A program made the translations under genes and the position numbers. This document shows, in pieces, positions 18,656 to 55,978 of a stretch of DNA of 64,000 nucleotides (its first letter is position 1; each line of letters opens with the position of its first letter). The stretch is from positions 83,031-147,030 of IMG/VR virus record IMGVR_UViG_3300037067_003221. One strand, 5' to 3'. This DNA is from a virus. Taxonomy: Duplodnaviria; Caudoviricetes. The notes under the pieces were generated by a model. That model ran no database searches. It had not been told where the DNA came from and was given only the letters and a program-made list of their open reading frames with translations.

Positions 18656-18875
18656 GTTTCAAATCCTTTACATACTCAGCGACTTCGTGATAGTATTCTT
18701 CATCCGGCACCCGTCCGAGACACCATGCGAGGCTTCTGGTAACTAAACCATCTGCCCCGTTACGTAGTAAATACTCAATCACCTTGTTGATCTGGAATTT
18801 CAATGGTCTCGGCATCTGTCTCTCCCATAGTTTCCAGCACGTTGGCGGCTTTATAAAGTGTCTGAGCAGCGTCAA
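18618..18875 (-). CDS. hypothetical protein (start probably internal, MPRPLK)
   Basis: Overlapping ORF in operon. Confidence 0.45.
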   Translation of the reverse strand: MTLLRHFIKPPTCWKLWERQMPRPLKFQINKVIEYLLRNGADGLVTRSLAWCLGRVPDEEYYHEVAEYVKDLKHGTEAEGQNPLE

Positions 18876-19383
18876 TCAAAGATTGTGCCGTATCGTGGCA
18901 TTCCTTTGCTCTGCTAACAAATATGGCCGTTAATATATCTGGTCGAATCTGTGTCAACGGGTGAAAATGTCTAGTTTTAATTGACCCGATAATTAAATTG
19001 CCTTCGACACGTTCTGGATTAAATGTATAGTAGGCACTGAACACGCCTAGTATTCGGATTAAAAACCGTGTCTCTCCCCACGTAATTTCTGTGCGTATTT
19101 CAAAAGAACTTGTTTGTTTATCATATACGCCGTACCATGTAGGAGCAGCGAAAGCAAAGGCCAACAATATTCGCAGGGATTCAGCACACTCGCCTTCATA
19201 GAGATTATAGATAATCTCAGGCATGTCGGCTCTTGTTTTAGCGGCTTTAACAGTGTTAAAGCACGGAAAATCTTTTGGCAATCGTTTCGATAACAGCATA
19301 TAAAAATCAATATCGTCCAGACAGCGTTTTGCCTTGACTAAAAGCCTTTTATATGTCGTATTGAGGGTGTTGATTGCATTCAT
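18775..19383 (-). CDS. hypothetical protein
   Basis: Start moved to ATG at 19383. Confidence 0.6.
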   Translation of the reverse strand: MNAINTLNTTYKRLLVKAKRCLDDIDFYMLLSKRLPKDFPCFNTVKAAKTRADMPEIIYNLYEGECAESLRILLAFAFAAPTWYGVYDKQTSSFEIRTEITWGETRFLIRILGVFSAYYTFNPERVEGNLIIGSIKTRHFHPLTQIRPDILTAIFVSRAKECHDTAQSLIDAAQTLYKAANVLETMGETDAETIEIPDQQGD

Positions 19384-19480
19384 TGCGTAAATCCTCGATT
19401 TCCCACTCTTCGTCAAATTCTTCGCCATCAATTTCTCGGCCAAGAATATCTTCGGCAGTTGTTAGGTCGTCTAAAGTCAT
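19349..19480 (-). CDS. highly acidic 43-aa microprotein (not in ORF track)
   Basis: RBS AAGGGA; MTLDDLTTAEDILGREIDGEEFDEEWEIEDLRNECNQHPQYDI. Confidence 0.65.
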   Translation of the reverse strand: MTLDDLTTAEDILGREIDGEEFDEEWEIEDLRNECNQHPQYDI

Positions 19481-19613: not shown

Positions 19614-19642
19614 ATTATACCACACTAATTGCTGTTTGTCAA
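19614..19642 (-). promoter_or_regulatory. sigma70 consensus promoter (TTGACA-17-TATAAT)
   Basis: Minus strand TTGACAaacagcaattagtgTGgTATAAT. Confidence 0.85.
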
Positions 19643-19648
19643 GCGAAT

Positions 19649-20950
19649 TTAATCACCGATTTGGTTCATCATGTCAATTTTGTACCGCTTCGGACCTTTG
19701 AGTTCGCCGTCGGTTTTCAACTTGACTGGCAACCGCCATGTTACTCCATACTTTTCATGTACGCCGTGGATGATCTGGGTGGGTTCTGTATAACCCGAAA
19801 AACTGTTGTAAACGTAGGCATCCGATGCTATCCATGTTCCGTTAATCAACAACTCACCATCCAACTCACTAGTCGTTCCAGGCCGGTGGAAGTGCCCACA
19901 CGCATAATAACGGACCCGTGTGCCCTTCTGGATGCCCGCCAGGGCAGACAATCGTGACTGCTTGCGGCTCAAACCATACCACGGAATGCCCATGCTGGTT
20001 TTAATATCGTCGCCGTGGAACACCGAGAATCCAACACCGTTAATGTCAAGATTCACCGTATAAGTATCGGGGATAATAAAGTTGGTATTGGGAATATCTC
20101 GGCAATGTAGCCGAGCAACTTCCGCAACCATATAATCCCAATTATCTTTAGCTCCGTGATAATCTTTCTTAATCGACCGGCGACCGTGGTTTCCAGGCAC
20201 GTACAGCACATTGACTGTCTCAAAGTACGGGGCTAAGTCCCGAATCATCAGTGCATGTAGCTGGCCAATTGCAAATGAGTTCTTAAACGCATTGCGGAAA
20301 TATGATCGTTGTGTGTTCCCATGAATTTCGCCACTCGTATGATCGCCGTAGGCTAGGATAGTCAACGTGGGGAAATAAAATTGCGGAGCTAATGTCTGTT
20401 GGGTCCATTTCAAAACCGTATCAACATAATGTTCAGCCCGCCGCATACTCACGGGGAATGTGTGGTTTTCCAACCCGCCACATTCAGACGGCTTGACGAC
20501 TTGATCGTGGTGTCCGTCCGACAGGTGCATAACCAAATCCTCTTCGATTTGGCCAGCTTCTACAAGCCCACGTTCGACCGGCAAGGCACTTGGCAGCGCA
20601 TCATACGGCTTAACTACATCTTGGATTTCCTCGACAATTGCCTGGAAGATGCCGTGGTCTTTAAGCATCGCTCTGTTCTGTTTTTGCAGCGCACTCCGCT
20701 CCTCCCTCAGAAGATTTACTTCGGCTTGTAGGTCGAGGACTCGCCCATCAGTGGGGTCGTATCCCGCAACTCCACGGCCACCACGGACCCGCGTTGGCAC
20801 GTCGATCTTTACTTCGCGCCATGCGCGACCAGTCGAAATATCAGAGATCAGAGAACGGCTAACACCGAACTTTGTGGCTAGTGCCGGTTGGGTAGCTCCA
20901 CCCGCCAACTCCATCTTAATTTCGGCAACTTTGTCTTTGTCCAACTTCAT
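19649..20950 (-). CDS. HTH + coiled coil + calcineurin-like metallophosphoesterase
   Basis: N-terminal HTH (ATQPALATKFGVSRSLIS); SDGH, GD, GNHG, HGD, GHFH. Confidence 0.82.
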   Translation of the reverse strand: MKLDKDKVAEIKMELAGGATQPALATKFGVSRSLISDISTGRAWREVKIDVPTRVRGGRGVAGYDPTDGRVLDLQAEVNLLREERSALQKQNRAMLKDHGIFQAIVEEIQDVVKPYDALPSALPVERGLVEAGQIEEDLVMHLSDGHHDQVVKPSECGGLENHTFPVSMRRAEHYVDTVLKWTQQTLAPQFYFPTLTILAYGDHTSGEIHGNTQRSYFRNAFKNSFAIGQLHALMIRDLAPYFETVNVLYVPGNHGRRSIKKDYHGAKDNWDYMVAEVARLHCRDIPNTNFIIPDTYTVNLDINGVGFSVFHGDDIKTSMGIPWYGLSRKQSRLSALAGIQKGTRVRYYACGHFHRPGTTSELDGELLINGTWIASDAYVYNSFSGYTEPTQIIHGVHEKYGVTWRLPVKLKTDGELKGPKRYKIDMMNQIGD

Positions 20951-21005: not shown

Positions 21006-22736
21006 TTACTTGCCTGTGCAAATGGTGTGCCTTTTGATGATAGATTTCACAGCGTCCACGAAATATTTGGGTTCATCATTATCGACTAAAATTGTTTTTA
21101 GGTCTAATGCGTCAACCCGCTTTTTCATATCATCGACCCCACAATCGGGTAGGATATTGTCGATCAGCATTAAAGCCTTGTCAATATATTCCTGTCGATT
21201 TGTTGCAATCAGATTAGTTATACCAACCTTCCGCATTACAGCCGACGATGCTCGGTTGTAAAAATAATTCCCCTCCCATGTCACAACCGGGCAGCCAACA
21301 AACAGCGAATCAACGATTGTGTTATAGCCACCAAATGGGTAGGAATCTAGGGTAAACTGTGCGGCCTCCATCTTTTCCAAGTAATCTTGGTAGGGCATAT
21401 TGCCATAGGCAATCGCGTTCTTTCCAAATAGGTCGGCCAAACCTCGCATGAACGGGATGGCATTTTGATACCGGCCAACTGTCCATGACGGGAAAAATTG
21501 GAATACAATAGGCTTACTTGCACGTTGCTGTATTTCCTGTAGCACTTGCAGCATAGGATAGTTAATCTTAGCAGAAGTCCAACAGCAATTTATCAAAAAC
21601 ATATCCGATTTCGGGTGTTTTCGAGTATAGTTAGGAAATACCGGATGCGCCCCGATTCCTGGGATAAGTACAAGTTTTTCACTATAATTTTCTTGGGCAG
21701 TTTTTGATTCCGAATCTTCGCCACCGATGAAATAATCAATTAGTGAACCATACGTACTTACAGGATGGCCATATCCAGTCACCATAATTGGAGCAAAACG
21801 TAAGTTTGCCAAGGCGACTGATTCATAGTTCATTCCAATATCAGGAAAATAGGCTAGTTGAAAATCATTTGATTTTAATGCCGTGGCATCTAAAGTTTTG
21901 AAATCCGGTGATAAGTCAACTTGTATCACTTTCTTAAACAATGACTTGTCGAGTGTTTCCAATTTTCCGCCAGAATGAACCAGCGTCAATTCATATTCTT
22001 TTGCCAAGGCTTCAATTTGATGGTAACAACTTTTATATACCGCCGTACTCGGTTGCCAACGAGCGGTGACAATCGCAATGCTCTTTGGATTAGGATTATT
22101 TGAAATCCTAATCTTTGAAACTTGGTCACGCACTTGTTTATTCATTGCAACTTTTATATCCCTGTCAGCTTCCATGTAGGTGCTTTGGAAATATAAAGGT
22201 GCTGTTCGGAAATCAGTTAAACGCAATTTTGCAGGTATATTTTTTAACTGCTTCACACATCGATCATGCACTTCTCTTGTCAATGTTCCGGGTGGTGCAG
22301 TCTGGTAATTTAGCCAGCAAATTGTACTCAAAGCCGGATTCGCATTGAACAATATATCCCAGTCAATAAGTTCTTTATTGTAGCAAGTATTAAGGGCCAG
22401 GATTTTAACAAAGTTATTTTCTTGAATAAGGACTCTTCGCAGATAACTATCTGTAGTTCCGATACAAGAAACAGCAGTCACATTAGCTACAAGGTGTCCG
22501 AGGTTGGCGTAGATTTGAGCGTCCGCCGCTGGAATCTCAAAATCTTGCTGAGTAAAAATATAAAGAAACGTAGCAACATACGTGTCTAAATCTTTCTGAT
22601 CTTCTTTGCCAATCGAACCGAAGGTTGTTTCATTGAAGTACCTAAGTTTCTCAATGAATAGTCGGCTCAGAGCCGCGTATTCTTTTCTTTGGTACATCTT
22701 CAACAAGGTATCAGTCGTCGGTAATGGTAGGCTCAT
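21006..22736 (-). CDS. GT41 protein glycosyltransferase, HMW1C/NGT-like (no TPRs)
   Basis: YFPDIGM..LANLRFAP....GHPVST...IDYFI; SAKIN; LDSYPFGGYNTIVDSL.GCPVV; helical N-terminal domain resembling HMW1C. Confidence 0.85.
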   Translation of the reverse strand: MSLPLPTTDTLLKMYQRKEYAALSRLFIEKLRYFNETTFGSIGKEDQKDLDTYVATFLYIFTQQDFEIPAADAQIYANLGHLVANVTAVSCIGTTDSYLRRVLIQENNFVKILALNTCYNKELIDWDILFNANPALSTICWLNYQTAPPGTLTREVHDRCVKQLKNIPAKLRLTDFRTAPLYFQSTYMEADRDIKVAMNKQVRDQVSKIRISNNPNPKSIAIVTARWQPSTAVYKSCYHQIEALAKEYELTLVHSGGKLETLDKSLFKKVIQVDLSPDFKTLDATALKSNDFQLAYFPDIGMNYESVALANLRFAPIMVTGYGHPVSTYGSLIDYFIGGEDSESKTAQENYSEKLVLIPGIGAHPVFPNYTRKHPKSDMFLINCCWTSAKINYPMLQVLQEIQQRASKPIVFQFFPSWTVGRYQNAIPFMRGLADLFGKNAIAYGNMPYQDYLEKMEAAQFTLDSYPFGGYNTIVDSLFVGCPVVTWEGNYFYNRASSAVMRKVGITNLIATNRQEYIDKALMLIDNILPDCGVDDMKKRVDALDLKTILVDNDEPKYFVDAVKSIIKRHTICTGK

Positions 22737-23892
22737 AGTCAACTAATTCTCCATCTTGCAAAGTCAACAGTCGTTGATATTTTAATCCACGACTCTGGAT
22801 ATCACGATAAATATCGTTGGCCCGCCACGGGGTCGTAATGACAACAGTAGGCGATTCCATACCACGAATAATCTCTGGGTCACGAATCTTTTGTCCCGTC
22901 CCTGGCACGTATTTATTCCATTTACCGCTATCGGAATCCACCACCCAAGTAAACTTAGTGGCATCAAGTTTGTGGTTGTTGATGAAGGCCGCGCTCTTAC
23001 CAGTGCCGCCCCACAGGATTACATTTCTCAGGGCTTCAAGTTGTTCTTTAACAGTGGCTACTGACTTTCTTACCTTCGCGGTAAAATTGTCGGCCAACAC
23101 TTTATTATATCGCAACGCTTGCGACTTTGGCTTAAAAATGCCAACTAACACTTCGTCACCATAGCAGCGTGAAATTTCTAACAACTCAAATCCAGACCCC
23201 ATAAACAAAGCAGCCAAACTACTCATAGTAAAGTTTGATACATGCTCATATAGGAAATCTGATAACCGTCCTAGTTCGAGTGAGTTATCCAAACATGGAA
23301 CTTCCGCCACAAAAATTGGCTCAATTCCATAGATTCCTGACCAATAAGAAATCTGTGAAACAAACTCTCGCGGATTTTCCAAATGCTCGATCACATGGCG
23401 GCAAATTAACAGCGAGGGGTTATGCCGTCGTAAATCCCGTTCTGGAATAAAGTAATCTTGTACGATAGTAAAATCACGTTGCTTACGTGCGTCAATTCCA
23501 GGTTCATAGCCTACACACCGGGCTTCTGGATAGGCTTCGCTCAACATCTGCAAAAACTGAGAGTCTCCACAGCCAATATCTATTACTTGTCCATCCTTCC
23601 ATGTTGGGGCGTTCTCCACTAGATGCTCCGCCAACCCCTTCATGTGTTCTTGCCACAATGGACCATTATTATACATCCGATTACTGTCGCCTTCATACGG
23701 CACTTGAGCGTATTGGAAGTCAACATTAAACACATGGCCGCAGACTGCGCACATCTTAAAAGACATAGGCAATCTAATAGCGGAAGTTGCATCCTCTGCC
23801 GACTTCGGTAGATTCAAAGCTACCAGTGGAGAGGGTTCAGGATTATAGATGGGAAGTAAAATGTTATTTCCACAAACAATACAAGTATTCAT
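22711..23892 (-). CDS. NDP-sugar C-methyltransferase (zinc finger + SAM + C-terminal domain)
   Basis: CIVCG..CAVCGHV zinc site, IDIGCGD, RHVIEHL, YEHVSNF, WGGTGKS..VVDSD..KW..YVPGTG. Confidence 0.85.
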   Translation of the reverse strand: MNTCIVCGNNILLPIYNPEPSPLVALNLPKSAEDATSAIRLPMSFKMCAVCGHVFNVDFQYAQVPYEGDSNRMYNNGPLWQEHMKGLAEHLVENAPTWKDGQVIDIGCGDSQFLQMLSEAYPEARCVGYEPGIDARKQRDFTIVQDYFIPERDLRRHNPSLLICRHVIEHLENPREFVSQISYWSGIYGIEPIFVAEVPCLDNSLELGRLSDFLYEHVSNFTMSSLAALFMGSGFELLEISRCYGDEVLVGIFKPKSQALRYNKVLADNFTAKVRKSVATVKEQLEALRNVILWGGTGKSAAFINNHKLDATKFTWVVDSDSGKWNKYVPGTGQKIRDPEIIRGMESPTVVITTPWRANDIYRDIQSRGLKYQRLLTLQDGELVDYEPTITDD

Positions 23893-23896
23893 TTTG

Positions 23897-24094
23897 TTAT
23901 CCTTTAATGGTGAGTACAAGTTGGCCCGTGATAAGACTCGCACCAACAATAGTTGCACAAACTAAACCGCCAACAACCAGTATTGCCGGGACTAAACTAG
24001 AGTCTCCGAGATACCCACCAGCCGCTTCAACCATCGACACTACCAGCGATAGGGCCAACGTACACACTACCGTCACTAAGAGGCAGGTCAACAT
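23897..24094 (-). CDS. small two-TM membrane protein
   Basis: Two hydrophobic segments; directly upstream of the C-methyltransferase. Confidence 0.45.
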   Translation of the reverse strand: MLTCLLVTVVCTLALSLVVSMVEAAGGYLGDSSLVPAILVVGGLVCATIVGASLITGQLVLTIKG

Positions 24095-24602
24095 TATTCT
24101 TCTCCGTTAAAATTTCTAAAACTTCTTCAAGTGAAAATGGACGTAATACACCAAAATGTGCGAAGGCTGAATCCAGCCCAACATCCAGGCGACCGATTTC
24201 CTTGGGTAGCCGGTTGTGGCAGTGCCCGTGTAGGTTCAAGCCACCATAGGCCCAACTCGACCATGAAGCCAGTGGATAGTGGCAAAGTGAAATTACTCGC
24301 CCACCAATCTTCTTAACAGCCAACATTTCAAATGTTGAGACATGCCGTGCCAATGAACTTGCATCATGGTTGCCGCGAGTACAATGAATCTTACGGCAAT
24401 TGATGCGGGACCGATAGTGGCCAGCCTTACTAGCCGTCCAACAAAAGTCGCCCAAGTGCCATAGTTCATCGTCACGCTTAACAAATTGATTGAGCGTACT
24501 AATAATCTCGTCGTCGTGATCTTTAATATTAAAAAATGCTCGACTTGTATGTTGCAGTATAGCAGCATGATTAAAGTGCGTATCGGCTGTAAACCAAATC
24601 AT
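24027..24602 (-). CDS. calcineurin-like metallophosphoesterase
   Basis: ADTHFNH, LGDF, GNHD, CHYP, HGHCH, DVGLD. Confidence 0.88.
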   Translation of the reverse strand: MIWFTADTHFNHAAILQHTSRAFFNIKDHDDEIISTLNQFVKRDDELWHLGDFCWTASKAGHYRSRINCRKIHCTRGNHDASSLARHVSTFEMLAVKKIGGRVISLCHYPLASWSSWAYGGLNLHGHCHNRLPKEIGRLDVGLDSAFAHFGVLRPFSLEEVLEILTEKNNVDLPLSDGSVYVGPIAGSVDG

Positions 24603-24829
24603 TATGAGTCCCAATATCTATGAAATTCTTCTTCGTACTCGGCATCTTGGATTGCACTAATATGGAAATGTAACCTGTCCATAATCATCTGCATACCAAT
24701 TTTAACACCGGCGTTATTTGTCATGTGCTGTAGTCTATCACATCTGTCCCAAGCCAAATGAAGTTCCCGCGTTGCCATTTTAACATGTGCTTCTGCTTGC
24801 ACGATCAAAGCTGCTTGCTCACCTTTCAT
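24602..24829 (-). CDS. hypothetical protein
   Basis: Coupled ORF. Confidence 0.55.
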   Translation of the reverse strand: MKGEQAALIVQAEAHVKMATRELHLAWDRCDRLQHMTNNAGVKIGMQMIMDRLHFHISAIQDAEYEEEFHRYWDS

Positions 24830-25815: not shown

Positions 25816-26003
25816 TTCTTTGGCTCCGGTTCAGTTGTCCAGTAGGACCAATTATCCCAGTTAGCAAATGTCTCAGCCAGAGCCTTACGATGCTCTTCGG
25901 CCTCTTCTCTTGATGGATATGGGCCACACTCGCCACATTCAGGCACGCGCGTGACCCACCATTCTTTATCAATCTTCTTACTCACCATGTTAGGTTTGCT
26001 CAT
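25812..26003 (-). CDS. hypothetical protein
   Basis: ATGA-coupled ORF; CGECGPY. Confidence 0.6.
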   Translation of the reverse strand: MSKPNMVSKKIDKEWWVTRVPECGECGPYPSREEAEEHRKALAETFANWDNWSYWTTEPEPKK

Positions 26004-26446
26004 AATGATAAGATAGCCTTAACTACATTCAAACCTTCTTCCAAAGTCTCAACCCGGAACCCTACAGCTTCACGAATCATTGCATGGTCGTGAACATTCC
26101 CTTCTTTCTCGATGCACAAGACAATAGGGATGCGGCATTCAAATGCCCAAGCAATCTCCATAACCGTTCCAATACTGACATTTGTAGCTCCGATTAAGTT
26201 CACAAGTAGCACATCACAACGAGTGCAGTCCCAGTGGTCGCGGGTCATAATGCCACGGGAACAACTTAGCACCGTATCATAATCACTACCGATACAATCT
26301 TCTCGGGCCAAATAACCTTTGGCCCGCATAGGGTCAAGCCCATCGTGGCCCGCGTTATACAATTCCTTAAACGCCCAATCCCGCCAGGAAGTGCAGCCTT
26401 CATACGATAGTCCGGTGATCGGGCCAGCCAAATAAACTTTATACAT
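26000..26446 (-). CDS. nucleoside 2-deoxyribosyltransferase family
   Basis: VYLAGPI, CDVLLVNL, SIGTVMEIAWA. Confidence 0.85.
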   Translation of the reverse strand: MYKVYLAGPITGLSYEGCTSWRDWAFKELYNAGHDGLDPMRAKGYLAREDCIGSDYDTVLSCSRGIMTRDHWDCTRCDVLLVNLIGATNVSIGTVMEIAWAFECRIPIVLCIEKEGNVHDHAMIREAVGFRVETLEEGLNVVKAILSL

Positions 26447-42759: not shown

Positions 42760-44244
42760 TTAAACTACCACGTATGATACTGTTTCATTGAGAGTAAGAT
42801 TATTTCCTGGCACTATGTATTCAACAATAACGCCTTCAAACTCAAAACCAACACTCCATTTATTTTTACCATCGTGAGTGGCCGGTTCGTTAGGAGTTGT
42901 TATAACTCCAATCCATTCTCGACCTTCCCAATCAGTGATATTTATTTCTTCACCTAGATGTGTTTCAATAAATGTTTGTAAGACATATACTTCGTTAGAA
43001 GTTAAACCAGTAAAGTTACAAACAACCGTATTTATCTTAGGCCAATTAGGATCGGCGAATACACTTAGTTTACCGCCTCTTGTTTCACGGCTTATTCTTG
43101 TAAAATTAAGTCTATCCCTATTTTCAAATTCAGGGGCGGGGAGTGTAACTGTGTCAGTAAATTCGCCTGTGGCTGGGAAAGACATTTGAAATCTTTCCGT
43201 TGAATTACTATTCACTGCGACAGGTAGGGTAATACTTGGAGCATCCGGGATTCCTGATACAGTTGATTCTCCGACAAAAGGTGTGTATTGTTTATTTGTA
43301 CACGGCCGTATTAAATAGTAGGCCAAAGAATGTCCTATTGCAAGCGACTCAACAACTGATCTTAAAAAATCTGCATGGTATTCTACGACACCATATAGTG
43401 TCATCGAATCAACTAAGGCTTGATAACGGCCAAATGCTACAGTCTCATTGAAGGTCAAAGAGTCTGTGACCGAAATAATAAGGTGTGAAGCCGACCCAGT
43501 AAATGTTAGCGTATCAGAAATCGTATAGGTACGAGTTCTTGATATTAAATCAACTAGCGTTAAAACGTCGTTGATTGTTTGTCGGATATTGGGATTATAT
43601 CCTGTCGCCGTGCCATTGAAAAATAAATTCTGGGCAACAACACCCCAACGAGTCGCATTGTATCCCGTGGCAACTTCTGTAAATGAGAAGCTGTCATATA
43701 CATATCTGGCTGTCGGTTTTTCCGCAACCACGACTTCGTTAAATGTTAAAGAGTCCCCTGTTGGATTAAAATCATTTGGTACGTGTAAATGGATGACTGT
43801 TTCATCAAAAGTTAAATCCTCAGTAACGTCTCCTAATTTAACAATTGAAACGCCATCAGTTAGACTCATTGAATCATTAACTGAACGATTCCACACCATA
43901 TTTGCTGTGGCGACAGTATCATTAAATGCTAATGAATCTGTAACTGTTCGTGGATGCCATAATTCTGATGTTGCTACTCCGTTCAAAGAGAACGAATCAT
44001 TTACTACTTTTGTACTCCCTGAAACTAGTTCATAAACAACTGTTTCATTGCATGAGAGTGAATCAGTAACAACGCGAGGACCAGCTAATAATGTGAAGGT
44101 TGCTACATCATTAACTGAGAAAGAATCAAAGACTGTCGGAGAAGTCAATGATAATAGCACGTAGGCATATTGGCGTGTAACTCGCAACTTTCCGCTGCCG
44201 GGTCCAAGCACAGAAACGTATTGTCGAGTTACTCGTTGGGTCAT
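42760..44244 (-). CDS. tail protein with VTDSLxFNETV repeats + Dit-like C-terminal domain
   Basis: More than 10 degenerate ~20-aa repeats; 14 N-X-S/T sequons by manual count. Confidence 0.7.
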   Translation of the reverse strand: MTQRVTRQYVSVLGPGSGKLRVTRQYAYVLLSLTSPTVFDSFSVNDVATFTLLAGPRVVTDSLSCNETVVYELVSGSTKVVNDSFSLNGVATSELWHPRTVTDSLAFNDTVATANMVWNRSVNDSMSLTDGVSIVKLGDVTEDLTFDETVIHLHVPNDFNPTGDSLTFNEVVVAEKPTARYVYDSFSFTEVATGYNATRWGVVAQNLFFNGTATGYNPNIRQTINDVLTLVDLISRTRTYTISDTLTFTGSASHLIISVTDSLTFNETVAFGRYQALVDSMTLYGVVEYHADFLRSVVESLAIGHSLAYYLIRPCTNKQYTPFVGESTVSGIPDAPSITLPVAVNSNSTERFQMSFPATGEFTDTVTLPAPEFENRDRLNFTRISRETRGGKLSVFADPNWPKINTVVCNFTGLTSNEVYVLQTFIETHLGEEINITDWEGREWIGVITTPNEPATHDGKNKWSVGFEFEGVIVEYIVPGNNLTLNETVSYVVV

Positions 44245-45269
44245 GGCACCATTACTCCAAATTGAGCAGCATTAAAATTGCTCACGGACCAAGCACTATT
44301 TGTGTTAGGATCAGTTTCTAAAATATTACTGACAGTTGTGTAACTGGTTATTACAGTTAAATTTGCACTATTTACAGTAGTCGCACCTGATACACATTGA
44401 ACCTGTAATGTACTATTAGCAGAAGTATCCTCACAGTCAACACAAACCATTGCACCTTTAATTGAATTTAATACACTTAGATTTGCAAAATCATATAGAT
44501 CAATATGGCCACTTGTAGAATCCTCTACATAGGTTGTATTGTCGTCAACAGGATTTTCATCTACCAGCGTATAATGAGTACCATTTGCCGAAGGTGTCCA
44601 TTGAACAGTCCCAGAGTCTCCACTGGGGTATATGGTTTCAACTCTTACATTGCCTAAAAATCCAGTAGCTCCGTTCGTGGCATATACATCATCAACTGTT
44701 AGAGTACCTTTCCAGTTATACCCATAAATCCAAAAACCATCAATATATGTATGGGCACCAAGTTTATGGGTGTCACTTCCACTGAATACAGTAGTACCAC
44801 CTAAACGCAACTCATAGTTAAAATTAGTCGCACTAGTACAAACTATTTGTATTTCAAAATAGTACCAAACATTGGCATTTAATATAAATGTTGAAGTAGC
44901 AATTGTTTGCCAAGCACTTGAATAATAGGTTTTTAATTTTAACTTACCATCCATCGTCATACAGATTTGAATCGCTTCGGTAGTTCCATCAATTAAAGAT
45001 AAAAATGAAGCCTCTGTTTCAAATTGTGACCATTTACATGCAATGCCGACGGTAAAGGTAGCATCTGTCGAACCAGCCAAACTTTGTTTTTTAAGAGTAT
45101 TTGTCCAAGTACCTGCTCCGAGTTGAAGTGCATATCCAGTACCGAATCTTCCAGTGACAAGATTAGCTGTACCAGCATTTGCCATTGTATATTTTCGGGC
45201 TAGGATGGTTGCTCCGGCTACAGTCGTCGAGCCAAACTCATCAAATCCGTCACACCATAATAAAGCCAT
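44241..45269 (-). CDS. LamG/concanavalin-like tail-associated protein (paralog B)
   Basis: MALLWCDGFD..WYYFEI..VDDVY..FLGNVRV..P.GD..FG. Confidence 0.65.
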   Translation of the reverse strand: MALLWCDGFDEFGSTTVAGATILARKYTMANAGTANLVTGRFGTGYALQLGAGTWTNTLKKQSLAGSTDATFTVGIACKWSQFETEASFLSLIDGTTEAIQICMTMDGKLKLKTYYSSAWQTIATSTFILNANVWYYFEIQIVCTSATNFNYELRLGGTTVFSGSDTHKLGAHTYIDGFWIYGYNWKGTLTVDDVYATNGATGFLGNVRVETIYPSGDSGTVQWTPSANGTHYTLVDENPVDDNTTYVEDSTSGHIDLYDFANLSVLNSIKGAMVCVDCEDTSANSTLQVQCVSGATTVNSANLTVITSYTTVSNILETDPNTNSAWSVSNFNAAQFGVMVP

Positions 45270-45277
45270 AATTGCAC

Positions 45278-46312
45278 CTACGAAAGTATGAATCCAAACT
45301 TAGCGGCATTAAATGCTGTGTCGGACCACAAACCACCTGTTTCTGGGTTTGTTTCAAAAATTTCATTTCGTGTAGAATATGTGCTAGAACCGCATAATTG
45401 CGTAGCACCATTTGCCGTAGTGGCTCCTGATACGCATTGTATTTTGTAATTAAATGGCGTTGTATCAGTTTCTCCACTCTCTACGGATACTACTACTCCT
45501 TTTATTACTCCAATAGATGTTACATCCTGGAATGTAAAAAGTTCAGCATGGCCGGAAACATTGTCCTCGACATAAGTAGTGAGGTCGCTGATTGCTTCAT
45601 TTAATAATGAATAATGACTTGCTCCATTTGAACCCGTCCACTCATTAGGACTCGCATCGCCATCAGGATATACTAATTGTACAACAATATTTCCGAGAAA
45701 ATCATTGTTATAACTTCCACTCCCATCACAAATATATAGATCATCGACGGTCATGCCATAATGCCAACTATAACCGACAAGAGCGATGCCGTTATGGTAA
45801 GCATGTGACCCACCTTTATGGGTATCAGACCCGTTAAAAATTAAGGTTTGGCCAATATGTAATTCATAATCATAGTTTGTTGCAGATGTGCAAGTTATTT
45901 TTAGCTCCACATAATACCAAGTCCCTGCTGTTAATGCAAAAGTCGATGTATTAACAGTTGTCGCACCTGCTTTTAGATATATAGTTCCATTTGCATTAAG
46001 ATGTAGTCCGAGTCCCAAAGTTCCTTCATCTGTAAATTGTAGGAACGGTTGTGAGGCATCAAAACTAGTCGCAATTTTAATACCTACACCGCAAATAAGA
46101 GTCGCATTAGTTGTATTTACTGCTTTTCTTAAAGTAGCATTCCAAACGCCTAAGTCTAGTGAATATAAACCAGTTCGACCAGCACGAATGTATGTTGAAC
46201 TTTCCGACCCTGAACTCATAACATAGTTACGACTCACAATGCCAGCAGGTGAAGGCGCAGAGCCAGCGGTGGTTCCGTAATTATCAAAACCATCAACCCA
46301 GAGTAGAGCCAT
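45278..46312 (-). CDS. LamG/concanavalin-like tail-associated protein (paralog A)
   Basis: MALLWVDGFD..WYYVEL..VDDLY..FLGNIVV..PDGD..FG; same upstream aggtgcaattATGGCT as paralog B. Confidence 0.65.
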   Translation of the reverse strand: MALLWVDGFDNYGTTAGSAPSPAGIVSRNYVMSSGSESSTYIRAGRTGLYSLDLGVWNATLRKAVNTTNATLICGVGIKIATSFDASQPFLQFTDEGTLGLGLHLNANGTIYLKAGATTVNTSTFALTAGTWYYVELKITCTSATNYDYELHIGQTLIFNGSDTHKGGSHAYHNGIALVGYSWHYGMTVDDLYICDGSGSYNNDFLGNIVVQLVYPDGDASPNEWTGSNGASHYSLLNEAISDLTTYVEDNVSGHAELFTFQDVTSIGVIKGVVVSVESGETDTTPFNYKIQCVSGATTANGATQLCGSSTYSTRNEIFETNPETGGLWSDTAFNAAKFGFILS

Positions 46313-54321: not shown

Positions 54322-55746
54322 TTAGCCGAGTAGAACGCAACCGAGGTTGAGGTCTAGCAAGGCAACGCCACCGAGTAAATCGCAAGTAACGATTGTACCC
54401 TGTGTGGTAATATCGTATTGCATGGTAACACGCATTGCGATATTGTTATAGGACGCAACTGCTGACCGAACACCGAAAGCGGAGTTTGGAAGAGCTAGTG
54501 GGCGGCTAACGAAAGCCAAAGCGTCCCGGTGGAACAATAGGTTCAAGGCACCGGCTGGGCCTGGGAACATATCTTGGTTATCAACCAAGTTAGCACCTGC
54601 AACGTCCAACGGACGGTCCAACCAAATGATCGTTTGGTTAGCGTTGGCAGGATTCTCGTAAGCCTCGATGATGGTGTACGTGCAGCGGGAAGTACCAGTG
54701 CCGGTAGCGATTAGCTGACCAACTTGTGGCACCTTTCCAGCGGTGTAACCGTCAACGGTAATACCCTTTGAGTAACCAGTCGCATAAGCACCGTCGCAAT
54801 CAACCTTGTTGTATTGCGTAACCGTTGCATTCACGCCAGGAACGCCTAGCGGACCAGAAGCGTACTTCAAGCCTTCGCTCAACGTAATGGACGTGTTGGC
54901 CACGGAGTTGGTGGCATAAACTGGCTGCATGTCGTTTTCGACAGTGATGAACTCACCGGCGACCACGGCTTGGGCCATATTCACTTCAATCAAAGTCGCA
55001 CCGATTGCTTCCGCATTGGTGGCAATGCCGGTCTTAACATCGGCATTGGTAATCGTAATACCCGGTTGGTTCTGAGCCATGTAGCTGTCAAAACCGAACA
55101 CCCGACCTAGAGCCGCTTCCCGAAGGGCCTGACCCTGATCGCCACGTTCATTCGCGGCGGTAAATAGCTGAGTCTGCAACATGGCAGTTTCAGACGATGG
55201 AGCAAGAACCATGTTACGACCACTTGGGTAGGCGAGGTTCTTGTTTAGTTTTTCACGACCTTCGAGCAAGTAATCCTTTGCGTTTGCGCTGCTCAACCCA
55301 CCTAGTTTACCAACGCGGTTGGCAAGGAACTTGTGGACTTGACCGCAAAGAGCGCGATCAACACCGCGAGCAATACCCTGCATGGCAGGGGCGAGGTACA
55401 CTTGCACCAAGTCTTGGAAAGACTTGCTGGCTTCGCCGTCCTTGATGGTGAAGCTGATATAGAAGTGCTGGTCCAAAGGAACCCGCACGTCATCAGTCGT
55501 AGCGTCTTGCAACGCGATGCTGTCGGCATCAACCTTACGTTTCACCTTGAAAGCCCCTGGCCGACGGGTATTAACCACGTCACCAAAGTTAGCAACTTCT
55601 GCGGAAAAGTCACGGTGAACTAGGTTCGCCATAACCATGTTTTCCTCAAGAATAGCAAGACCTTCATTGGCCCAAAGTTCCGGCACGAATGCGTCGGTGT
55701 TGTTTTCGTAGCAAGCGACACTGGTTTGTAGAATAAACATTCTCAT
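54322..55746 (-). CDS. major capsid protein (P22 coat-like) with large inserted domain
   Basis: FVPELWA..L..N.V...VHRD..GD.V; FHRDALAFVSRPL..D.L.G. Confidence 0.88.
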   Translation of the reverse strand: MRMFILQTSVACYENNTDAFVPELWANEGLAILEENMVMANLVHRDFSAEVANFGDVVNTRRPGAFKVKRKVDADSIALQDATTDDVRVPLDQHFYISFTIKDGEASKSFQDLVQVYLAPAMQGIARGVDRALCGQVHKFLANRVGKLGGLSSANAKDYLLEGREKLNKNLAYPSGRNMVLAPSSETAMLQTQLFTAANERGDQGQALREAALGRVFGFDSYMAQNQPGITITNADVKTGIATNAEAIGATLIEVNMAQAVVAGEFITVENDMQPVYATNSVANTSITLSEGLKYASGPLGVPGVNATVTQYNKVDCDGAYATGYSKGITVDGYTAGKVPQVGQLIATGTGTSRCTYTIIEAYENPANANQTIIWLDRPLDVAGANLVDNQDMFPGPAGALNLLFHRDALAFVSRPLALPNSAFGVRSAVASYNNIAMRVTMQYDITTQGTIVTCDLLGGVALLDLNLGCVLLG

Positions 55747-55978
55747 AGTCTCCATAAATTGTTTGGTTTGTTTTGTTTCGTCTCACAAACCCTACAATAC
55801 ACACTAGTCGGACTCCAAAATGTAGGTCTTTCGGCGACTGGCCTGATTTAACGTCACCAGTAACGGCCTTTCGGCTAAATCTCTAAAAAACCCGGCCTCG
55901 CCGGTGCTTGCAGTCATCTGCAAGGATAATCAAGTGCTGTTCACTCTAAACAGCGAGCAGCACTTGATAACATACTTC

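Follow-up and report, generated by a model that had tools for sequence, protein, structure and literature searches.

We analysed a 64-kb stretch of DNA (the window) that forms the right-hand part of a 147,030-bp record of an uncultured phage in IMG/VR (CheckV completeness 100%). Two overlapping genes on its minus strand encode a nucleoside diphosphate (NDP)-sugar C-methyltransferase (MT) and a glycosyltransferase of family GT41 that lacks tetratricopeptide repeats (TPRs). Together they form the MT-GT41 cassette, a pair that is real, conserved and new for phages and a candidate protein-glycosylation system. A first-pass annotation, made from the letters of the window and their open reading frames (ORFs), had read the pair as a module that makes a methyl-branched sugar and attaches it to Asn in N-X-S/T sequons, most plausibly of the phage's own virion, using an enzyme of the HMW1C/N-glycosyltransferase (NGT) type. 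Its description of the two genes holds, and the overlap between them measures 26 nt (Table 1).

The source is a tailed phage, since PHROG profiles match a major head (capsid) protein (54322..55755), a scaffold, a portal and a large terminase. INPHARED contains no cultured relative, and none is available given that the large terminase is only ~25% identical to those of SPO1-like phages. A Shine-Dalgarno-like AAAGGA precedes the ATG of the MT gene, and GGAG lies ~13 nt upstream of the GT41 ATG, for which an alternative TTG occurs two codons upstream, at 22742. The overlap and the GGAG site suggest that the two genes are co-translated. The spacing is also tight in related phage loci, where the MT match ends 1-222 nt from the start of the GT41 match.

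Pairing and distribution among phages

A profile scan of IMG/VR recovered 44 viral GT41 loci, and in 38 of these an MT gene lies directly upstream. The same order occurs on a 136-kb contig from NCBI, which brings the number of related phage loci to 39, and the pair is also found on a phage-like contig binned as Anaerolinea (contigs L002 and L048, respectively). GT41 identity drops to 30% among the 38 loci, nearly all of which have a phrog_284 exonuclease gene downstream (36 loci, and one more in which that gene is truncated at the contig end). The first-pass annotation had proposed co-occurrence in related phages as a check on the pairing, and wherever a related phage locus has either gene (39 of 39) the two prove to be adjacent, which links them functionally.

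We used the exonuclease gene as an anchor to score the presence or absence of the cassette. Among exonuclease-anchored loci with at least 5 kb of upstream sequence (n = 62), 58 lack the two genes and 4 carry the two; neither gene occurs there by itself. Fourteen such contigs of sister phages, with capsid proteins 42-59% identical to the one encoded here, were free of GT41 throughout. The pair is therefore an accessory cassette that is gained and lost as a unit. DNA and tblastn searches of 50,697 deposited phages returned no match to the GT41 and only weak matches to the MT (21-22% identity), and literature searches found no phage GT41 system, in line with the earlier view that the system is undescribed in phages.

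Several related phages (L012-L016, L014/L019, L025/L026) carry an MT gene followed by two tandem, divergent GT41 paralogues that are 29-36% identical to the window protein. This arrangement hints at a disaccharide or at two acceptors. IMG/VR classes seven of the 14 sister records without the cassette as proviruses (G016, G017, G019, G021, G022, G024, G025) and none of the records with it, so the wider phage group may include temperate members.

Two enzymes of known fold

The assignment of the first gene to zinc- and S-adenosylmethionine (SAM)-dependent NDP-hexose C-methyltransferases is borne out by domains, structure and catalytic residues. Pfam matches are to Methyltransf_23 (8e-12) and to Methyltransf_14 (2.7e-7), the C-methyltransferase C-terminal domain, and the best sequence matches in the PDB are MtmC (4rv9, 3.5e-10), KijD1 and TcaB9. 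The protein starts with a four-Cys zinc ribbon, continues with a class-I SAM domain and ends in a domain that binds the NDP-sugar. With an AlphaFold2 model (pLDDT 92.3) as query, the top 18 Foldseek matches are all C3-methyltransferases of the TcaB9/KijD1/MtmC family, aligned over ~420 columns; generic methyltransferases rank next (E ~1e-7) and match the Rossmann core only. Invariant among 24 homologues are C4/C7/C48/C51, the GxGxG motif, H166 and E216-H217. The last two elements align with the RH and EH motifs of MtmC and are the counterparts of the catalytic H181 and E224/H225 of TcaB9, numbered as in the titles of mutant PDB entries.

The second gene product carries the motifs FPDIGM..LRFAP..GYGHP, TSAKIN and YPFGGYNT. 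Its only Pfam match is PF13844 (3.9e-11; 42.3 bits against a gathering cut-off of 25), and Pfam finds no TPRs. Sequence matches in the PDB are led by AaNGT (1.4e-26) and ApNGT (4e-22), the best alignment spanning both Rossmann lobes, whereas OGT, SPY and XcOGT reach only 1e-7 to 1e-11 (OGT, 1e-10). The AlphaFold2 model, built with 35 homologues (pLDDT 92.6, pTM 0.90), starts with a domain made up entirely of helices (residues 10-208 in the model, within an all-alpha domain of about residues 1-210), as the first-pass annotation had anticipated, and continues as a GT-B fold. Foldseek aligns it over its full length, including the all-alpha domain, to ApNGT and AaNGT structures (3q3e, 8p0q, 8j30) with template modelling (TM) scores of 0.78-0.83, compared with 0.52-0.62 for OGT/SPY. 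Sequence and structure searches thus agree on an HMW1C/NGT rather than an OGT/SPY architecture. HMW1C_N and HMw1_D2 annotations also occur on part of the ESM Atlas neighbours of the protein, and hhalign of the phage family against EtpC-type plasmid NGTs gives a probability of 100 (E 5e-47, 557 columns).

The resemblance stops short of the NGT group itself. The sole NCBIfam match is the NGT equivalog NF049992, at 109.4 bits against a cut-off of 1000 bits that is not reached. A word-indexed search yielded 415 matches to the phage family, and an exhaustive search yielded 1,294 clusters at 50% identity with E<=1e-30, more than 150 of them full-length. The phage GT41 belongs to a large sister family of HMW1C/NGT; its donor site is kept, and the residues that read Ser/Thr at the +2 position are missing.

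Donor and acceptor residues

Roles of NGT residues are known from the AaNGT ternary complex (PMC10507012) and from a study of ApNGT (PMC10466321). We located their counterparts with hhalign and with an independent MAFFT L-INS-i alignment of 139 sequences, taking as NGT reference set bona fide plasmid enzymes encoded beside ShlB/FhaC and FHA-type adhesin genes, and tallied them over 135 family members (Table 1). Residues K392, G325-H326, N474, D478, Y454 and Y189 are invariant or near-invariant across the family. Arg177 and Asp215 (the latter in the DVYM motif) are essential in NGTs, in which R177A and D215A are inactive (PMC10507012), and both are conserved among active NGTs (PMC10507012, PMC10466321). 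In the phage protein, Pro151 occupies the Arg177 position in both alignments. Ala181-Pro182 falls on His214-Asp215 in the MAFFT L-INS-i alignment only, hhalign leaving His-Asp in a 6-residue gap.

The phage GT41 thus has the NGT fold and a working-looking donor site and is devoid of the NGT apparatus for reading N-X-S/T. Judged from these residues, its acceptor rule would differ from that of NGTs, and the candidate linkages are to the oxygen of Ser/Thr or to the nitrogen of Asn in another context.

Table 1. Features of the MT-GT41 locus and phage GT41 counterparts of NGT functional residues. Nucleotide positions are those of the window unless a record is named.
Feature	Position	Strand	Details
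NDP-sugar C-methyltransferase (MT) gene	22711..23892	-	ATG 23892, stop 22711, 393 aa
TPR-less GT41 gene	21006..22736	-	ATG 22736, stop 21006, 576 aa
Overlap of MT 3' end and GT41 5' end	22711..22736	-	26 nt, read from the sequence
Calcineurin-like phosphoesterase gene	24027..24614	-	Upstream flank, outside the cassette; Pfam Metallophos
Mre11/SbcD-like exonuclease gene	19649..20950	-	Downstream flank, outside the cassette; N-terminal helix-turn-helix; PHROG phrog_284, 4.9e-34
UDP-xylose gene pair	G000:C1:11381-13652 (= L129:1489-3682; L132:11381-13652)		Outside the window
Donor, AaNGT K440	K392		Conserved; invariant in 135/135 family members
Donor, AaNGT T437	T389		
Donor, AaNGT G369-H370	G325-H326		Conserved in family
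Donor, AaNGT N520	N474		Conserved in family
Donor, AaNGT D524	D478		Conserved in family
Donor, AaNGT Y500	Y454		Conserved in family
Acceptor-Asn pocket, ApNGT Y222/H371	Y189/H326		Conserved in family
+2 Ser/Thr reader, Arg177	Pro151		Variable in family
+2 Ser/Thr reader, His214-Asp215 (DVYM motif)	Ala181-Pro182		Variable in family; Asp in 12/135
Sugar contact, H276/S277	T233/A234		Variable in family
Uracil contact, H494/S495	N448/M449		Variable in family

Sequons in virion proteins

Could the phage protein nevertheless be a genuine enzyme of the HMW1C/NGT type, one that builds a glycan shield by N-glycosylating the phage's own virion proteins at Asn in N-X-S/T? Its whole fold and its nearest solved relatives are those of NGTs, and Y222 and H371 of ApNGT, which flank the acceptor Asn there (PMC10466321), are kept. 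However, the prolines in place of the essential Arg177 and Asp215, a position that is Asp in few family members, and the score far below the equivalog cut-off speak against such an activity.

Sequon counts were also examined. Over all ORFs of the phage genome there are 263 sequons compared with 251 expected from shuffles, which is no enrichment. The structural block has 72 against 58.8 expected, and a single ORF stands out, 42760..44244, with 14 sequons against 6.7 expected; its p = 0.006, for one ORF among 233, fails multiple testing. Across genomes, 20-kb structural blocks were compared between 12 genomes with the cassette and 13 without, with replication blocks as a control. The observed/expected ratio of N-x-S/T in structural blocks is 1.11 with the cassette and 0.83 without it (p = 1e-4), in groups that are not phylogenetically independent and that differ in GC content, and replication blocks have no such difference (0.86 with, 0.99 without). 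Taken by themselves, these figures favour glycosylation of the virion at sequons.

The control motifs shift alike, however. In the structural blocks the reversed motif S/T-x-N has a ratio of 1.26 with the cassette and 0.99 without, and D-x-S/T has 1.05 and 0.86, respectively. Orthologue groups rich in sequons all have an equal or greater excess of the reversed motif (1.25-1.96), and no aligned sequon is common to at least 40% of the orthologues from cassette phages. We therefore rejected the structural-block excess as a sequon-specific signal. It arises because Asn/Asp cluster locally with Ser/Thr, and from composition and phylogeny, and it does not show selection for N-X-S/T. In the capsid protein, phages that have the cassette and phages that lack it do not differ in sequon number (p = 0.23). 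The proteins beside the bacterial homologues point the same way: planctomycete flagellins and FliD next to the cassette have no sequon enrichment, and the flagellins tend to depletion (11 sequons against 16.9 expected). The tests applied here to residues, motifs and genome comparisons thus do not support the part of the first-pass annotation that has the virion N-glycosylated at sequons, and we regard a genuine NGT acting on virion sequons as quite improbable.

Within the structural region, two adjacent paralogous genes (44241..45269 and 45278..46312, minus strand), both phrog_2448 and of unknown function, form the largest structural cluster common to the related phages.

Cellular counterparts

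A scan of species-representative genomes found 80 GT41 loci, mostly in Planctomycetota and Cyanobacteriota, only eight of which also have the MT. In six of these eight Planctomycetota loci the MT-GT41 pair adjoins flagellin or fliD/fliS. A flagellin of 1,065-1,069 aa (Flagellin_N plus Flagellin_C) lies directly upstream of the pair in L049 and L052, and a 913-aa flagellin precedes the GT41 gene in L057. FliD follows the pair in L051/L128, L059 and L064, accompanied by FliS in two of them. The cellular pair occurs in Pirellulales and Thermoguttaceae, and these are the closest bacterial sequences to the phage proteins (37-45% identity for GT41, 34-48% for MT). A FastTree phylogeny with NGTs as the root places the MT-associated GT41s of phages and planctomycetes outside a large MT-less clade; it has a long root branch and gives little resolution of the branching among the MT-associated sequences.

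Elsewhere in the family, members are fused to GT4, GT14, sulfotransferase or class-I methyltransferase domains, or neighboured by GT4, GT14, sulfotransferase, O-methyltransferase and nucleotidyltransferase genes, which fits an initiating enzyme whose glycan is then tailored. Fusions of GT41 to an MT of this exact type were not found, only those to generic class-I methyltransferases. By association, the family may glycosylate proteins, in Planctomycetes those of the flagellar filament, with tailoring of the glycan thereafter.

The giant flagellins beside MT-GT41 in Pirellulales/Planctomycetaceae metagenome-assembled genomes (L049:1006-4203, L052:442-3651, L057:2583-5324) are 913-1,069 aa long and contain ~11% Thr. 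Their position suggests a planctomycete flagellin glycosylation island, of which we found no description. Separately, one bacterial contig of 5.18 Mb encodes at least six GT41-family paralogues (L003:6196-9758, P0078, P0101, P0104, P0108, P0120, P0127), including a tandem pair and a 1,237-aa double-GT41 fusion.

Genomic context

The cassette is embedded in a replication/recombination module with the order SNF2-type helicase, nucleoside-deoxyribosyltransferase-like ORF, phosphoesterase, MT, GT41, exonuclease and PolA. The phosphoesterase belongs to the conserved backbone of this module; related phages, too, have a member of its family upstream of the MT. Neither a promoter nor a terminator that would convincingly set the cassette apart from its neighbours was seen. 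The nucleoside 2-deoxyribosyltransferase-like ORF (26000..26446, minus strand) has Pfam matches of E ~5e-6, just below the cut-offs. Downstream, a perfect sigma-70 consensus promoter (19614..19642, minus strand; TTGACA, 17 nt, TATAAT, extended TG) lies just beyond the exonuclease gene and faces a 222-aa ORF (18775..19443).

Placement among genes for an exonuclease, a helicase, PolA and a nucleoside 2-deoxyribosyltransferase-like protein raises the alternative that the pair glycosylates phage DNA (or RNA) to evade restriction. Phage DNA glycosyltransferases are diverse (Pyle et al. 2024, as cited in PMC12619734). Nevertheless, the peptide-binding all-alpha domain is retained and conserved in this GT41, the bacterial homologues adjoin flagellar genes, a ThyA-like hydroxymethylase for 5-hydroxymethyl pyrimidines was not found in the phage, and the pair is absent from sister phages that share these replication genes. 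For these reasons nucleic-acid modification is highly improbable. To our knowledge, moreover, every characterised GT41 enzyme (OGT, SPY, NGT) glycosylates proteins.

Sugar supply

The only sugar enzyme of the short-chain dehydrogenase/reductase (SDR) type in the phage is a UDP-glucuronate decarboxylase (UDP-xylose synthase; 2.6e-109 to human UXS1). Its gene overlaps one for UDP-glucose 6-dehydrogenase (TIGR03026, 3e-133), and together they would lead to UDP-xylose. The UDP-xylose synthase gene lies ~93 kb from the cassette in the genome record. Of 13 genomes with the cassette, 3 encode an SDR sugar enzyme; of 14 without it, none does. The synthase and the dehydrogenase were considered as an obligate donor pathway and rejected because so few cassette genomes encode an SDR enzyme; the UDP-xylose genes are thus not the cassette's obligate partner.

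Since most cassette phages encode no dehydratase or reductase, the MT would need an NDP-4-keto sugar from the host. The earlier statement that the phage makes a methyl-branched sugar is accordingly incomplete.

Function and acceptor

We consider it probable that MT-GT41 is an accessory cytoplasmic protein-glycosylation cassette that uses a C-methyl sugar. The MT would take up an NDP-4-keto sugar, presumably supplied by the host, and C-methylate it with SAM, as TcaB9, KijD1 and MtmC do. The co-translated GT41 would then transfer the C-methyl sugar, or a related NDP-sugar, onto protein in the cytoplasm of the infected cell. Among possible acceptors, the phage's own virion proteins are a plausible candidate that we put forward tentatively. 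Host flagellin or another exported host protein seems an unlikely target, and other intracellular proteins slightly more so.

Several observations weigh against this proposal. The cassette lies inside the replication/recombination module, with ~17 kb between it and the closest structural gene, unlike in mycobacteriophages, where the glycosyltransferase genes adjoin structural ones. Structural proteins common to phages with and without the cassette have the same lengths and no cassette-specific insert or extension, and the capsid sequon counts given above are likewise equal. The phage genome encodes no 4,6-dehydratase, 4-ketoreductase or nucleotidyltransferase to feed the MT, and the scarcity of SDR sugar enzymes in cassette genomes adds to this gap. 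The NGT contacts to sugar and uracil are replaced (Table 1), and therefore the donor cannot be named; it is probably other than that of NGTs. As for a flagellar target, the phage genome has neither a flagellin gene nor a tyrosine integrase, and modifying newly made host flagellin during a lytic cycle would bring little benefit.

These last points bear on a host-directed version of events, in which the pair, as its planctomycete counterpart probably does, glycosylates host flagellin, FliD or another exported host protein and thereby masks a receptor against superinfection or alters motility. In favour of such a role, the closest cellular homologues of both genes are paired beside flagellin or fliD/fliS, and the cassette sits among early/middle-type replication genes with no separating terminator. 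Phage genes that modify receptors, such as the O-antigen Gtr systems, are accessory, as the cassette is, and the proviral flags on half of the sister records indicate lysogeny in the wider group. This phage has no tyrosine integrase, however, and glycosylation would act on new protein before export, so existing filaments would escape it. The GC content of cassette phages covers a range of 35-58%, from which it follows that their hosts are diverse and not necessarily flagellated, and literature searches found no phage-encoded flagellin glycosyltransferase. Conversion of the host surface is thus rather unlikely, and we retain cytoplasmic protein glycosylation, with the virion as tentative target, as the preferred reading.

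It is possible, though we hold this with some doubt, that the cassette represents the first GT41 protein-glycosylation system in viruses of bacteria. It would then be a mobile MT-GT41 unit, shared with planctomycete flagellar loci, that coats the virion or the host flagellum with a C-methyl-branched sugar. The transferring enzyme, of HMW1C fold, would follow a new acceptor rule and might link the sugar to Asn outside the canonical sequon.

Significance

Protein glycosylation by a single cytoplasmic NGT is prized for glycoengineering, and the NGTs known to us are only a narrow group of adhesin-modifying enzymes. The analysis delineates a large, uncharacterised sister family (the 1,294 clusters above) whose members have the fold and an intact donor site of NGTs and differ from them in the acceptor groove. 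The family probably uses an unusual branched sugar and has a phage-borne branch that comes and goes as a two-gene unit. Should the cassette decorate virions, glycosylation of phage particles would extend beyond actinobacteriophages and involve a new enzyme family. Should it modify host flagella, it would represent a new kind of phage-driven receptor conversion. With either target, the pair offers a small, testable system for new acceptor rules and new donor sugars.

Comparison with known systems

The closest structural parallels of the phage GT41 are HMW1C, ApNGT, AaNGT and EtpC. All share the three-domain architecture of an all-alpha domain and a GT-B fold without TPRs (full-length TM ~0.8), the donor phosphate/ribose ligands (Lys, GH, Asn, Asp) and the Tyr/His around the acceptor. 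The phage enzyme differs in being only 18-24% identical to them and far under the equivalog cut-off, in lacking Arg177 and the DVYM Asp215, and in its sugar and uracil contacts. Moreover, the plasmid NGT genes of the reference set adjoin ShlB/FhaC and FHA genes, whereas the phage gene has no two-partner-secretion adhesin (HMW1A/B, EtpBA) nearby and is instead paired with a C-methyltransferase.

A second parallel is with flagellin glycosylation islands of enterobacteria, of which GT41 genes, often fused to methyltransferases, are part (De Maayer & Cowan 2016; PMC4875605). Association of GT41 with a methyltransferase is common to both systems, and the planctomycete pairs likewise adjoin flagellin or fliD/fliS. 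The enterobacterial enzymes are of the SPINDLY type (COG3914) and mostly fused to a generic AdoMet methyltransferase domain (PMC4875605), whereas the MT of the phage family is a separate three-domain NDP-sugar C-methyltransferase. The phage cassette also differs from these islands in lying among replication genes, in a genome without flagellin.

If the virion is the target, the cassette would be a functional analogue of mycobacteriophage virion glycosylation, in which phage-encoded glycosyltransferases could likewise decorate the particle. Glycosyltransferases of other families are reportedly involved there. The mycobacteriophage glycans lie at the C-termini of capsid and tail-tube subunits (PMC12619734, which cites Freeman et al. 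2023, PMC10527164), and no such cassette-specific tail or extension was found here.

The phage MT, finally, resembles the 3-C-methyltransferases of the TcaB9/KijD1/MtmC/TylC3 type in its zinc ribbon, SAM domain, C-terminal domain, catalytic His and Glu-His pair. It is only ~18-20% identical to TcaB9, KijD1 and MtmC and stands outside any antibiotic deoxysugar pathway, at a locus without dehydratase or ketoreductase. In those pathways the partner is a natural-product glycosyltransferase, whereas that of the phage MT is a predicted protein glycosyltransferase.

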